A program made the position numbers. From Escherichia coli (GTDB lineage: Bacteria > Pseudomonadota > Gammaproteobacteria > Enterobacterales > Enterobacteriaceae), in the NCBI RefSeq assembly GCF_024700885.2, contig NZ_CP117016.1: DNA of 64,000 nt. One strand, written 5' to 3'. This document shows positions 29,601-38,600 of this stretch, piece by piece (within the stretch, counting starts at the first letter, position 1; each line of letters opens with the position of its first letter).

Positions 29601-32600
29601 ACAACGGTCACCGTTATGCTATCCCCAGCGATATATTTCGTTTTGTCCGTGACTATCGTGGATTGAGATTTTGCCGCCGCACCTGGTTGTATCCCGTATA
29701 ATGAGGACTTAATCTCCGTTCCCCATGTTTTTAATTTCAGACTGGCAACCAGATTTTCCTCGGCAACCCATGCTGTCCAGACAATGGTATATTCACCATT
29801 ATTCTGCTCGACCCACTGCAGAGAATCGGGAGTTGCGCCACCTACCGCGAAATTATCGATATAAGACTCGATGACTTCTGATGTCAGCCCTAAAGCAGGG
29901 TTATCAAACTCATCCCGCAACGTTATTGTGACGGTTAATGGCTCCCCAGCGATATATGCCAATTTATCTGTCCTGATAGCAGAATTTGCCTGCACCGGAG
30001 CACCGCTGTGGATGGAATAACTCTCTGATTGTTTACTGCTGCCCCATTCAGACAACTTCAGCGTCGCGTGGTGAGAGTCTCCCGCCATTTGCGCCGACCA
30101 TGTAGCAGTATAAACACCGGCAGTTTCAGACCATCCTCCTGAACGTACGGCTCCTTCTACTGTTACGTTATCACCAGACAATAAGGACTCGCCCCCTTCA
30201 ACCAGGTTACCGTGCGCGTCTTTCAGCGTCACAGCGACGGTTATAGTGTCACCAGCGGTGTAGGCGTTTTTATCCGTAGCGATAGTTGATGTGGCTTGCG
30301 CCGGAGAACCGGACTGTATGTCATAGCGATCTGACGTTACGCCATCACTCCACGTCTGCAATTGCAGGTTGGCGTGCTGATTGGTACTGGCAATCGTCGC
30401 CATTCGGGTTGTGGTATACACGCCACCTGATTCAACCCAGCTTCCCGTTTCTGACGGGTCAGTGCCAGCCACCGTCAGCACACCATCAGCGGCTAACTGT
30501 GAAGCTGCACCGGTTACCAGATTATCGAACGCATCCCGGAGCGTTACCGTGATGGTGATTGTCTCTCCAACCGTATAGTTCGACTTATTTGTTTCAACGG
30601 TTGAAGTGAGCTGCGATGCATCACCAGGTACAAAGGTGACATTCTGGCTCTGGCTGCTGTTGTTGATGCTGGCGGTGACTGTACTGGTGCCCGCCGTCTG
30701 GCTGGTGACACTGATCTCCACCGTGCCATCCGGCTCTGTAATCACCGTCGGAGCAACCGTTGCGCCGTTGCCTGCCGTCACGCTGACCGTCTGTCCGGCA
30801 AGCGCATTACCGAACGCATCGGTGACCCTCGCCCGCAGCATATTCGCCATTGCGCCGTCTGCCACTGAGTTATCCCGGGTGACCACCAGATCCGCGATCT
30901 GCGCCGTCCTGACATCCGCGATAAACATCACGTTCTGGCTCGCGGTGCTGTTGTTGATAGTTGCAGTGACCGCACTGGTTCCGGCGGTCTGGCTGGTGAC
31001 AGAGATCTCCACCGTGCCGTCCGGCTGCGTGGTGACCGTCGGAGCAGTCGTGGCACCGTTGCCTGCCAACACGCTGACCGTCTGTCCGGCAAGCGCATTA
31101 CCGAACGCATCGGTCACCCTCGCCCGCAGCATATTCGCCATTGCGCCGTCTGCCACTGAGTCGTCCTTAATGACCACCAAATCAGCGATCTTCGCCGTCC
31201 TGACATCGGCGATAAACATCACGTTCTGGCTCGCGGTGCTGTTGTTGATAGTTGCAGTGACCGCACTGATTCCGGCGGTCTGGCTGGTGACAGAGATCTC
31301 CACCGTGCCGTCCGGCTCTGTAATCACCGTTGGGGCAGTCGTTGCACCGTTGCCTGCCAACACGCTGACCGTCTGTCCGGCAAGCGTATTACCGAACGCA
31401 TCGGTCACCCTCGCCCGCAGCGTGTTCGCCGTCGAACCGTCCGCCTCTGAACCATCCTTAATAACCACCAGATCCGCTATCTTCGCCGTCCTGACATCGG
31501 CGACAAACGTCACGTTCCGGCTCAGGCTGCTGTTGTTGATGCTGGCAGTGACTGTACTGACTCCCGCCGTCTGACTGGTGACTGAGATCTCCACCGTACC
31601 GTCCGGCTGCGTGGTGACCGTCGGGGAAACCGTTGCACCGTTGTCCGCCAACACGCTGACCGTCTGTCCGCCCAGCGTATTACCGAATGCATCGGTCACC
31701 CTCGCCCGCAGCGTGTTCACCGTCGAACCGTCCGCCTCTGAACCATCCTTAATGACCACCAGGTCCGCGATCTGCGCCGTGCTGGCATCGGCGATAAATG
31801 TCACATCCCGGCTCTGACTGCTGCTGTTGATGCTGGCAGTGACTGTACTGACTCCCGCCGTCTGACTGGTGACAGAGATCTCCACCGTGCCGTCCGGATG
31901 CGTGGTGACCGTCGGAGCGACCGCTGCACCGTTGTCCGCCAACACGCTGACCGTCTGTCCGGCAAGTGCATTACCGAACGCATCGGTGACCCTCGCCCGC
32001 AGCGTGTTCGCCGTCGAACCGTCCGCCTCTGAACCATCCTTAATGACCACCAGATCCGCGATCTTCGCCGTCCTGACATCGGCGATAAATGTCACGTTCT
32101 GACTCTGAGTACTGCTGTTGATGGTTGCAGTGACTGCACTGACTCCCGCCGTCTGGCTGGTGACTGAGATCTCCAACGTCCCGTCCGGCTCTGTGATGAC
32201 CGTCGGGGCTGTCGTTGCGCCGTTGTCCGCCAACACGCTGACCGTCTGCCCGGCTAGCGTGTTCCCGAACGCATCCGTCACCCTCACCCGCAGCGTGTTC
32301 GCCATTGCGCCGTCAGCCACGGCGTTATCCTGCGTCACCTCCAGACTCGCGATCTGCGCCGTCCTGACATCGGCGATAAACGTCACGTTCCGGCTCGCGG
32401 TACTGCTGTTGATACTGGCGGTGACGGCACTGGTGCCCGCCGTCTGGCTGGTGACACTGATCTCCACCGTGCCGTCCTGCTCGGTGATCACCGTCGGGGC
32501 AGTCGTTACGCCGTTGTCCGCCAACACGCTGACCGTCTGCCCGCCAAGCGCATTACCGAACGCATCCGTCACCCTCGCCCGCAGCATATTCGCCATTGCG

Positions 32601-35600: not shown

Positions 35601-38600
35601 CTGCTGCTGTTGATGGTTGCAGTGACCGCACTGGTGCCCGCCGTCTGACTGGTGACACTGATCTCCACTGTGCCGTCCTGCCCTGTGATGACAGTCGGAG
35701 TGACCGTTGCGCCGTTATCCGCCAACACGCTGACCGTCTGCCCGGCTAGTGTGTTCCCGAACGCATCGGTCACCCTCACCCGCAGCGTGTTCGCCGTCGA
35801 ACCGTCCGCCTCTGAACCATCCTTAATGACCACCAGATCAGCGATCTTCGCCGTGCTGACATCGGCGATAAATATCACGTTCTGACTCTGGCTACTGCTG
35901 TTGATGGTTGCAGTGACTGCACTGACTCCCGCCGTCTGGCTGGTGACACTGATTTCCACCGTGCCGTCCGGCTCGGTGATCACCGTCGGGGCAACCGTTG
36001 CGCCGTTGTCCGCCATCACGCTGACCGTCTGTCCATTCAGCGCATTCCCGAACGCATCGGTGACCTTCACCCGCAGCGTGTTCGCCATTGCGCCGTCAGC
36101 CACTGAGTTATCCTGCGTCACCTCCAGACTCGCGATCTTCGCCGTCCTGACATCGGCAACAAACGTCACGTTCCGGCTCAGGCTGCTGCTGTTGATGCTG
36201 GCAGTGACCGCACTGGTGCCTGCCGTCTGGCTGGTGACAGAGATCTCCACCGTGCCGTCCGGCTGCGTGGTGACCGTCGGAGCAGTCGTGGCACCGTTGC
36301 CTGCCAACACGCTGACCGTCTGTCCGGCAAGCGCATTACCGAACGCATCGGTGACCTTCACCCGCAGCGTGTTCGCCATTGCACCGTCTGCCACTGAGTC
36401 GTCCTTAATGACCACCAGATCCGCGATCTTCGCCGTCTTGACATCGGCGATAAATGTCACGTTCTGACTCTGAGTACTGCTGTTGATGGTTGCAGTGACT
36501 GCACTGACTCCCGCCGTCTGGCTGGTGACACTGATTTCCACCGTGCCGTCCGGCTGCGTGGTGACCACCGGAGCAACCGTTGCGCCGTTGCCTGCCGTCA
36601 CGCTGACCGTCTGCCCGGCAAGTGTATTCCCGAACGCATCGGTCACCTTCACCTGCAGCGTATTCGCCATTGCGCCGTCTGCCACTGAGTCGTCCTTAAT
36701 GACCACCAGGTCCGCGATCTTCGCCGTGCTGACATCGGCAATAAACGTCACGTTCCGGCTCTGGCTGCTGTTGTTGATGCTGGCGGTGACCGCACTGGTT
36801 CCGGCGGTCTGGCTGGTGACAGAGATCTCCACCGTGCCGTCCGGCTGCGTGGTGACCGTCGGAGCAGTCGTGGCACCGTTGCCTGCCAACACGCTGACCG
36901 TCTGTCCGGCAAGCGCATTACCGAACGCATCGGTGACCCTCGCCCGCAGCATATTCGCCATTGCACCGTCTGCCACTGAGTCGTCCTTAATGACCACCAG
37001 GTCTGCGATCTTCGCCGTCCTGACATCGGCGATAAATGTCACGTTCTGACTCAGGGTGCTGTTGTTAATGCTGGCAGTGACCGCACTGGTGCCTGCCGTC
37101 TGGCTGGTGACACTGATCTCCACCGTGCCGTCCGGCTCTGTGGTGACGGTCGAAGCAACCGTTGCGCCGTTGTCCGCCAACACGCTGACCGTCTGTCCGG
37201 CAAGTGCATTACCGAACGCATCGGTGACCCTCGCCCGCAGCGTGTTCGCCGTCGAACCGTCCGCCTCTGAACCATCCTTAATGACCACCAGATCCGCGAT
37301 CTTCGCCGTCCTGACATCGGCGATAAATGTCACGTTCTGACTCTGAGTACTGCTGTTGATGGTTGCAGTGACTGCACTGACTCCCGCCGTCTGGCTGGTG
37401 ACTGAGATCTCCAACGTCCCGTCCGGCTCTGTGATGACCGTTGGGGCTGTCGTTGCGCCGTTGTCCGCCAACACGCTGACCGTCTGCCCGGCTAGCGTGT
37501 TCCCGAACGCATCCGTCACCCTCACCCGCAGCGTGTTCGCCGTCGAACCGTCCGCCTCTGAACCATCCTTAATGACCACCAGATCAGCGATCTTCGCCGT
37601 CCCGACATCTGCGATAAATGTCACATCCCGGCTCTGGCTGCTGGTGTTGATGCTGGCAGTGACCGCACTGGTTCCGGCCGTCTGGCTGGTGACAGAGATC
37701 TCCACCGTGCCATCCGGCTGCGTAGTGACTGTCGGAGCAGTCGTGGCACCGTTGCCTGCCAACACGCTGACCGTCTGCCCGGCAAGCGTATTACCGAACG
37801 CATCGGTGACCTTCACCCGCAGCGTGTTCGCCGTCGAACCGTCCGCCTCTGAACCATCCTTAATGACCACCAGCTCCGCGACCTGCGCCGTGCTAACATC
37901 AGCAACAAAGTTCACCGTTTTACTATCGCTGCTTTGATTAACCTTAGCCTCAACAGTGCTGGCATCCGCTACGGTACTGCTCAGATCAACCTCTGCCATG
38001 CCATGCGCATCCGTCCTGATATCTGCGCTCTGCCCTGCATTGGCAAATACAGCCGCCCCCTTCGTCACCGTAAAGGTGACGGTCTGCTCCGGCAGCACAT
38101 TGCCAAACTGATCTTCCACCCGGACATTCACCGTATGTCGATCGCTGCCATTCGCCAGCACATCCGGGTTACCCGTTGTCACTTGCATCGCGACAATTTG
38201 TGCGCTGGCGGCATCGCCACTAATACTGTAATCATTTGAAGTCAAAGCGCTCGCCCAGCCGGACATCTGTAGCTGTGCTTTTAAACCGGTGCCAGGGAGT
38301 AATGCGGTATACGTTGCGGTATAAATTCCTTTTTGATCTTCATTCCAGGCGATGCTTTCCGCTTTTGTATTTGGCAGCTGGATAGCCTGGTTGATAGCGT
38401 ATCGTTGCCCCCCGACCAGGTTTTCATAGCTATCCTTGAGTGTCACCGTAACTTTTATCGCACCGCCCGCGGTGTAGGCCGTTTTGTCGGTAACGATGGA
38501 GGAATAAGCCAGCACAGCTCCGCTTTCGCGGATGGCATACGCATCGGATTGCTGCGCGCTACTCCATGTCGATAGTTTCAGCGTGGCGTAATGGCGATCG

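Follow-up and report, generated by a model that had tools for sequence, protein, structure and literature searches.

A 25-unit array of immunoglobulin-like repeats in the inverse autotransporter adhesin gene iatC of Escherichia coli and its variation in length between strains

The stretch of DNA analyzed here, referred to as the window, covers 64,000 nucleotides of contig NZ_CP117016.1 from Escherichia coli (assembly GCF_024700885.2). It contains iatC, also named air or eaeX, a gene for an inverse autotransporter adhesin, the central part of which consists of tandem 291-bp units (Table 1). The 12,864-nt gene is identical to the gene annotated by RefSeq as iatC, "inverse autotransporter adhesin IatC", in strain MLI114, and the MLI114 sequence and the window are 100% identical across 15 kb; other alleles at the same site carry the RefSeq labels air or EaeX/Air. 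The NCBIfam equivalog-domain model Ve_IatC_Nterm matched aa (amino acids) 1-1065 over its full length (model positions 1-1065 of 1065) with a score of 2549.5 bits, as compared to a curated cut-off of 2400. The gene is located between eilA and nepI in the selC-associated eip island (selC-B/eip), which is the conserved position of IatC, and the gene order in the MLI114 record is selC, setC, yicL, nlpA, yicS, the eip genes, eilA, iatC and nepI. This island was found in 756 of 5426 complete E. coli genomes. The window gene is E. coli iatC/air/eaeX.

Table 1. Positions of the iatC gene, its parts and adjacent features in the window.
Feature	Position	Strand	Basis or remark
iatC (= air / eaeX), coding sequence, 4287 aa, inverse autotransporter (type Ve) adhesin	28490..41353	-	Single open reading frame
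N-part, aa 1-1150: leader, LysM-like segment, beta-barrel, about six divergent immunoglobulin-like domains	37904..41353	-	Pfam
Beta-barrel, aa 149-423	40085-40909	-	Pfam IAT_beta PF11924, E=3.2e-108, full model covered
Array of 25 tandem 291-bp units (97 aa each), aa 1151-3575	30629..37903	-	Tandem Repeats Finder, unit register, identity matrix
Recent gene-conversion patch, specific to the window allele, unit 10 nt 240 to unit 11 nt 3	34991..35045	-	Donor: unit 19/20 junction
C-part, aa 3576-4287: divergent immunoglobulin-like domains, then invasin D4-like domain and lectin-like tip	28490..30628	-	Pfam Invasin_D3, Invasin_D4
eilA, HilA-family regulator	26743..28440	+	Convergent with iatC; annotation of identical record
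Terminator-like hairpin	28454..28475	-	Between the convergent iatC and eilA stops; consensus match only

Tandem Repeats Finder identified a single array at 30642-37900 with a period of 291, 24.9 copies, 85% matches and 0% indels; the window has no other large tandem array. When the sequence is shifted by 291 nt, the base identity is 0.857, far above chance, as compared to 0.20-0.30 at adjacent lags. In the reading frame of 4287 aa, the array resolves into exactly 25 in-frame units without indels. An earlier note on this sequence had described about 25 near-identical units with about 90% identity or more. The number and the period hold, but the similarity was overstated: pairwise identity among the 25 units is on average 85.5% at the DNA level (range 77.7-95.2%) and 82.3% at the protein level (range 71-95%), with 22 of the 300 unit pairs reaching 90% DNA identity and no two units identical. 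Neither a higher-order structure nor a closer similarity of neighbors was found; adjacent units have an identity of 0.859, and the value is about 0.85 at every distance along the array. Different units in the window have exact in-register tracts of 50-275 nt in common, which is sufficient for homologous exchange. Several long open reading frames on the plus strand, antisense to the array (30606-37937; at most 322 aa, e.g., 30606-31574), were taken as by-products of a GC-rich, stop-poor repeat and not as genes.

Each unit corresponds to one Big_1 immunoglobulin (Ig)-like domain (Pfam Big_1, E=3.5e-21 for the last unit). Two consecutive units align to domains D1-D2 of invasin (1CWV; E=9e-16), and the last 266 aa of the protein align to residues 296-460 of the same structure (E=4.7e-18). 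The AlphaFold model of two units is all-beta, with a predicted local distance difference test score (pLDDT) of 69 and a predicted template modeling score (pTM) of 0.46. The top Foldseek matches to this model were intimin (D0-D1), invasin, InvD, InvE and FdeC, all of which are Ig tandems of inverse autotransporters. The overall layout is that of IatC, with a beta-barrel (IAT_beta) placed N-terminal to a passenger that consists of Big_1/Invasin_D3 Ig-like domains and an invasin D4-D5-like tip of the C-type-lectin-like fold. Matches to Pfam Invasin_D3 and Big_1 were also obtained for the Ig domains of the N-part. A LysM domain in front of the barrel has been reported for IatC (Goh 2019, PMC6714894; Fox 2020, PMC7058095); no Pfam LysM match was obtained in the N-part at E<=10, and aa 67-117 are LysM-like as judged by eye only. 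Between the array units and the remaining Ig domains of IatC, identity is no higher than 34-39%. In E. albertii, the orthologs (among P0088-P0117) are 1647-1969 aa long with an N-part that is 66-67% identical, and no domain in the three orthologs that were checked (P0088, P0091, P0101) is more than 37% identical to an array unit, so the homogeneous array appears to be specific to E. coli.

The number of units was compared between the window and 14 further alleles that are annotated as intact in RefSeq, all of which were fetched from complete genomes. The N-part is 1150 aa long in all 15 full-length alleles and the C-part is 712, 716 or 717 aa long. Between these constant flanks, 13 of the 14 further alleles have 11-25 whole units; the fourteenth, from strain F2_81, is suspect, as described below. 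The counts seen among the complete-genome alleles are 11, 12, 14, 15, 16, 18, 19, 20 and 25. A census was derived from the lengths over which a 15,001-nt query extended in the 60 genomes with the best matches, a sample of the 756 carriers of the locus, and was checked on fetched loci. It gave 25 units in 22 genomes, 20 units in 4, 19 units in 9, 18 units in 13, 15 units in 7, 14 units in 4 and 12 units in a single genome. The window allele thus has the highest count in the sample examined. The allele of SMS-3-5, which has been studied experimentally, has 11 units and a length of 2933 aa.

Unrelated isolates of one allele lineage have the same count, while the counts differ between lineages, and the array is therefore not a fast switch (see also PMC7058095). 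Differences between alleles involve whole units. One lineage forms a deletion series, in which the alleles with 18 and 15 units correspond to the allele with 20 units minus 2 and 5 units, respectively. In other alleles we identified an adjacent unit pair with 100% identity, a duplication of 3 units and a block duplication of 6 units. The alleles are also mosaic: the last five units of one 19-unit allele are 100% identical to window units, its other units being at most 96% identical to any unit in the window. Overall, the arrays of different alleles have few units in common, despite flanks that are about 98% identical. The expectation that such an array is prone to copy-number change is borne out by the 11-25 whole units between constant flanks, the deletion series, the duplications and a 13-unit deletion with a hybrid junction (see below). 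As for the mechanism, the earlier note had named both slipped-strand and unequal recombination; changes in units of 291 bp are better explained by unequal recombination or gene conversion than by slipped-strand mispairing of the classical kind.

Two groups of entries depart from this pattern. In F2_81 (NZ_CP043542.1; iatC at 8091-14303 of the fetched locus), which is labeled complete, the gene has two units and an out-of-register partial unit of 14 aa, with a join that runs from …NVTFIADVSTAQIADLVVI directly into ADVSTAKIADLVV…. This is the only join seen that does not involve whole units, and the F2_81 form is probably a collapsed assembly. In ETEC6333 (NZ_CP122600.1), air is annotated as a frameshifted, C-terminally incomplete pseudogene with few units, and its sister ETEC4075 has the same match span.

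Such entries raise the question of whether the 25-unit array could itself be an expanded or mis-joined assembly of a gene that is in reality much shorter. The N-part was used as a query against a public collection of proteins, and the 120 cluster representatives with the best matches were inspected. As many as 42 of these have both ends complete and exactly one unit (1959, 1963 or 1964 aa), 39 end inside or just after the array, many of them labeled "partial", and none of the 120 has complete ends with several units. If taken at face value, the single-unit entries would favor a short gene, and so would the few "complete" genomes that show about 2-3 units or odd joins, such as F2_81. However, three of the entries have exactly the N-part of the window allele, a C-part that differs by one residue, and a single unit with the start of unit 1 and the end of unit 25. 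This chimeric unit is different in each of the three entries, one of which comes from a draft whole-genome-shotgun contig, and three different chimeras of units 1 and 25 indicate a collapse of the assembly graph and not a real short allele. The 15,001-nt span was recovered at 99.1-100% identity in 12 complete genomes from different hosts and countries, and a 14,989-nt span in 5 more complete genomes, owing to a 12-bp deletion. In total, the full set of 25 units recurs at this level of identity in 17 complete genomes that differ in laboratory, host and country of origin. The 25 units are all distinct and can therefore be placed by long reads, and most of the 756 genomes that carry the locus show many off-diagonal matches (median 35 places, among the matches listed). 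An artefact in the window assembly is ruled out by the 17 independent genomes, and we regard a much shorter real gene as extremely improbable. The suspicion that arrays of this kind are commonly collapsed in short-read assemblies was well founded, as seen from the 42 single-unit proteins, the 39 proteins that end in or just after the array and the three chimeric drafts of the window allele. This has practical consequences, since genomic studies of E. coli score air/eaeX/iatC as a marker associated with virulence, and most public protein entries are either collapsed to one chimeric unit or cut off in the array. Lengths and sequences from short-read assemblies are for this reason unreliable, and long-read assemblies alone give the 11-25 units.

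To characterize recent changes, we compared 18 complete genomes with almost identical flanks, including 7.7 kb of non-array sequence. The non-array sequence contains one single-nucleotide polymorphism, at window position 28953, as compared to four events in the array, which marks the array as a hotspot of change. First, the window and MLI114 differ from strain 1190 at ten sites, of which nine are packed into 55 nt (34991-35045), and nine further members of the clone have the same match score as strain 1190. Over 85 nt, the window version of this patch has the same sequence as the in-register segment nine units away, and the alternative version has no copy elsewhere in the array. The patch is thus a recent short-patch gene conversion, the donor of which can be identified. 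Second, units 3-6 in SW4848 are replaced by a copy of units 21-24, with 125 mismatches to the window and the count still at 25, as would result from an ectopic conversion of about 1 kb. Third, 13 units are missing from GPEC403-625, the flanks of which are identical to those of the window clone. The junction unit corresponds to unit 2 up to nt 88 and to unit 15 from nt 72, so that the crossover falls within an identical tract of 17 nt. Fourth, the O166:H15 group has a 12-bp in-frame deletion in unit 19. Within a single clone, unit deletion, block duplication and gene conversion have left traces of unusual clarity.

The longer history of the array was studied in a pool of 228 units from 13 alleles. 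Most nucleotide columns that vary among the window units (111 of 124) are also commonly variable in the pool, and the mean identity within the array is 83-86% in each allele examined. Linkage (r2) is about 0.2-0.3 at distances of at most 5 nt and drops to about 0.01-0.04 for sites more than 30-60 nt apart, and nearly every pair of sites shows each of the four possible combinations of alleles. Among the units, the nonsynonymous divergence (dN) is 0.105 and the synonymous divergence (dS) is 0.36, which gives a dN/dS ratio of 0.29; for the N-part, the comparison between alleles gave a dS of 0.04-0.18 and a dN/dS of 0.11-0.20. The dS between units is thus about 2 to 9 times as high as between alleles of the N-part, and together with the low dN/dS ratio this indicates that the unit variants are old and under purifying selection. 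Positive selection on the units was considered and is unsupported by this crude pairwise ratio.

It could be argued that the shuffling serves mainly antigenic diversification, with short-patch conversion varying epitopes through about 30 polymorphic surface residues per domain. The 228 units comprise as many as 157 distinct DNA sequences, built from the same 2-4 alternative residues at about 30 amino-acid positions, linkage decays within about 30 nt, and the arrays of different alleles have so few units in common. The variable positions alternate with conserved hydrophobic ones in the predicted strands, as expected for one exposed face. On the other hand, the dN/dS ratio reveals no excess of amino-acid changes, the alternative residues are mostly conservative, events within the clone are rare, and no silent donor locus or dedicated recombinase turned up, although no systematic search was made for them. 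We consider antigenic diversification an improbable main role. A concentration of the variability in loops was also considered and rejected: 19 of the 30 highly variable positions are in predicted strands, in keeping with a strand fraction of 0.60 for the unit overall.

The array also stands out in base composition. Its GC content is 0.615 and its GC content at third codon positions (GC3) is 0.756, as compared to a GC3 of 0.54-0.56 in the N-part, 0.44 in the C-terminal Ig domains and 0.35 in the tip, and of 0.30-0.37 in the neighboring island genes (eilA and the eipB-like gene). At the 34 third-codon positions that are polymorphic for A/T versus G/C, the G/C state has a mean frequency of 0.66. 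GC-biased gene conversion at a hotspot of recombination could account for this pattern, but so could separate origins of the gene parts. A more specific scenario, which we consider doubtful, is that frequent short-patch conversion holds the array at about 85% identity by shuffling about 88 old shared sites, and that GC bias in this conversion drove the GC3 to 0.76. If this were true, biased gene conversion in E. coli would have a natural reporter in this array, which would also generate variant stalk surfaces in a combinatorial manner. The free mosaic of shared polymorphisms and the high GC3 of the array may be new, if minor, observations. The tip (window 28490-29050) has the lowest GC within iatC and exists in at least three variants among the alleles, ending in SALCLQEF (window), SGLCVEYY or SPLCMKTF, which suggests that the putative receptor-binding tip domain is exchanged between alleles.

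Taken together, we consider it very likely that the array is a variable-length Ig stalk of IatC that changes by whole-unit exchange and conversion, as in inverse autotransporters of the Periscope type. The N-terminal beta-barrel anchors the protein and exports the passenger, in which 25 similar Big_1 domains would combine with about a dozen divergent Ig-like domains into a long rod. The rod would place the invasin D4-D5-like lectin tip at a distance from the cell, outside the O-antigen or capsule. In invasin, an Ig domain extends about 3.6 nm, and 25 units would then measure about 90 nm and 11 units about 40 nm. Identical DNA tracts permit recombination between units; unequal exchange removes or adds whole units and alters the stalk length in frame, and non-reciprocal conversion copies patches from unit to unit, such that the units stay a shuffled mosaic of the same polymorphisms. 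The stalk length may tune how far the tip is exposed, a role that has been proposed for the length of Periscope Proteins (PMC8201768, PMC9704523). Consistent with a role at the cell surface, IatC of SMS-3-5 is surface-located and promotes biofilm formation when overexpressed (PMC6714894), and eilA and eaeX mutants of enteroaggregative E. coli (EAEC) 042 show weaker adhesion and form less biofilm (PMC7058095, citing Sheikh 2006).

Several observations weigh against this interpretation. The tie between stalk length and function is one that we infer from computational analysis, and the AlphaFold model of two units is of moderate quality, which makes its prediction of the interdomain geometry and of the rigidity of the rod unreliable. 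The count is constant within allele lineages, so change is slow and could be neutral. The junction of the 13-unit deletion appears to have formed within an identical tract of only 17 nt, and the GPEC403-625 deletion and the SW4848 conversion each come from a single assembly and could be assembly or polishing errors. Finally, Goh 2019 reported no evidence of variability in the IatC repeat number (PMC6714894), a statement that is contradicted by the counts in complete genomes.

A possible but rather unlikely alternative is that the variation in copy number and the mosaic structure are neutral by-products of recombination, with the array serving as a spacer above some minimum length. The fixed counts within allele lineages, with no obvious link to the host in our sample, would be expected in that case, as would the purifying rather than diversifying selection on the units, and the 11-unit IatC of SMS-3-5 is functional in biofilm assays (PMC6714894). 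Against this, all RefSeq-intact alleles with 11-25 units keep the frame and full-length units, none of the sampled complete genomes has fewer than 11 units, suspect assemblies apart, and length effects have been documented for other Periscope Proteins (PMC8201768); none of these points is decisive. The units could alternatively be binding modules for self-association or for host immunoglobulin or matrix, with copy number tuning avidity and not reach. The promotion of biofilm formation by overexpressed IatC (PMC6714894) could be read in this way, and InvD, which is among the structural matches of the two-unit model, has Ig domains that bind antibody Fab regions according to the title of a reference in PMC9704523. 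However, neither autoaggregation nor binding of extracellular-matrix proteins by IatC was seen by Goh 2019 (PMC6714894), and no binding motif was identified in the units. We consider a role in avidity improbable. A stalk of variable length remains our preferred interpretation.

In the surroundings of iatC, the convergent gene eilA has been reported to control the iatC locus (PMC7058095, citing Sheikh 2006). The terminator-like hairpin between the two genes has a 9-pair stem (6 G-C) followed by a T-rich tail, as compared to a mean of 0.1 such sites in shuffled controls. A promoter scan of the 201-nt gap upstream of iatC gave no sigma-70-like match on the minus strand. The eip cluster is located upstream of eilA and together with this gene spans window positions 21457-28440. 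It encodes a SycD/LcrH-family chaperone, a YopB/SseC-family translocon subunit, a hypothetical protein and an IpaD/SipD-family needle-tip protein in AT-rich genes (GC 0.35-0.41), and corresponds to the known selC-B island, the partner of the ETT2 type III secretion system. Just past nepI, genes for a RelE/ParE-family toxin (43310-43633) and a helix-turn-helix protein (42973-43326) form a pair, and some of the other fetched strains have a frameshift in the toxin gene.

In comparison with known systems, the window gene agrees with IatC/Air/EaeX of SMS-3-5 (EcSMS35_4024) and EAEC 042 (air) in site (eilA-nepI), N-part, passenger layout and lectin-like tip, and is the same gene, but it has 25 units and 4287 aa as compared to 11 units and 2933 aa in SMS-3-5. 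The number of Big repeats in EaeX has been reported to vary between sequence types (Fox 2020, PMC7058095), and inverse autotransporters have been named as Gram-negative Periscope Proteins (2022 review, PMC9704523). The repeat array and its variation in length are therefore real and already known. The array raises no new question in itself and is of practical value mainly for annotation and surveillance.

The closest solved structures are those of Yersinia invasin, intimin, InvD, InvE and FdeC, which have similar Big_1/Invasin_D3 Ig tandems and a D4-D5-like tip. These proteins contain some 2-5 Ig domains that are markedly different from one another, as opposed to the 25 consecutive domains with 82% identity in IatC of the window. 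A precedent for a long run of highly similar Ig domains in an inverse autotransporter is YrIlm of Yersinia ruckeri (Goh 2019, PMC6714894). YrIlm belongs to a separate family, to which the window protein gave only a partial match (NCBIfam YrIlm N-terminal model, 414 versus a cut-off of 750), and its repeats are described as almost identical, whereas those of IatC are a mosaic with 85% identity. Unlike phase-variable loci with simple sequence repeats, the unit of IatC is 291 nt (3 x 97), and RefSeq-intact alleles are in frame at 11-25 units. As compared to the cassette systems pilE/pilS and vlsE, both of the resolved conversion events have their donors within the expressed array itself; silent copies were not searched for across the genome.

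The array also matches the Periscope Proteins. These are defined operationally by repeats of more than 50 aa with at least 80% identity, which applies to the 97-aa units of the window with a mean protein identity of 82.3%, and as in this class (Whelan 2021, PMC8201768) the repeat number varies between strains and a functional domain is placed distally. IatC differs from typical members in that its repeat identity is low for the class (82% at the protein and 85.5% at the DNA level) and change seems to be slow, and from the Gram-positive examples in its reversed orientation, with the anchor formed by an N-terminal beta-barrel and the tip located at the C-terminus. The array is a further clear Gram-negative example of a variable-length adhesin stalk, as far as can be predicted from the domain architecture.

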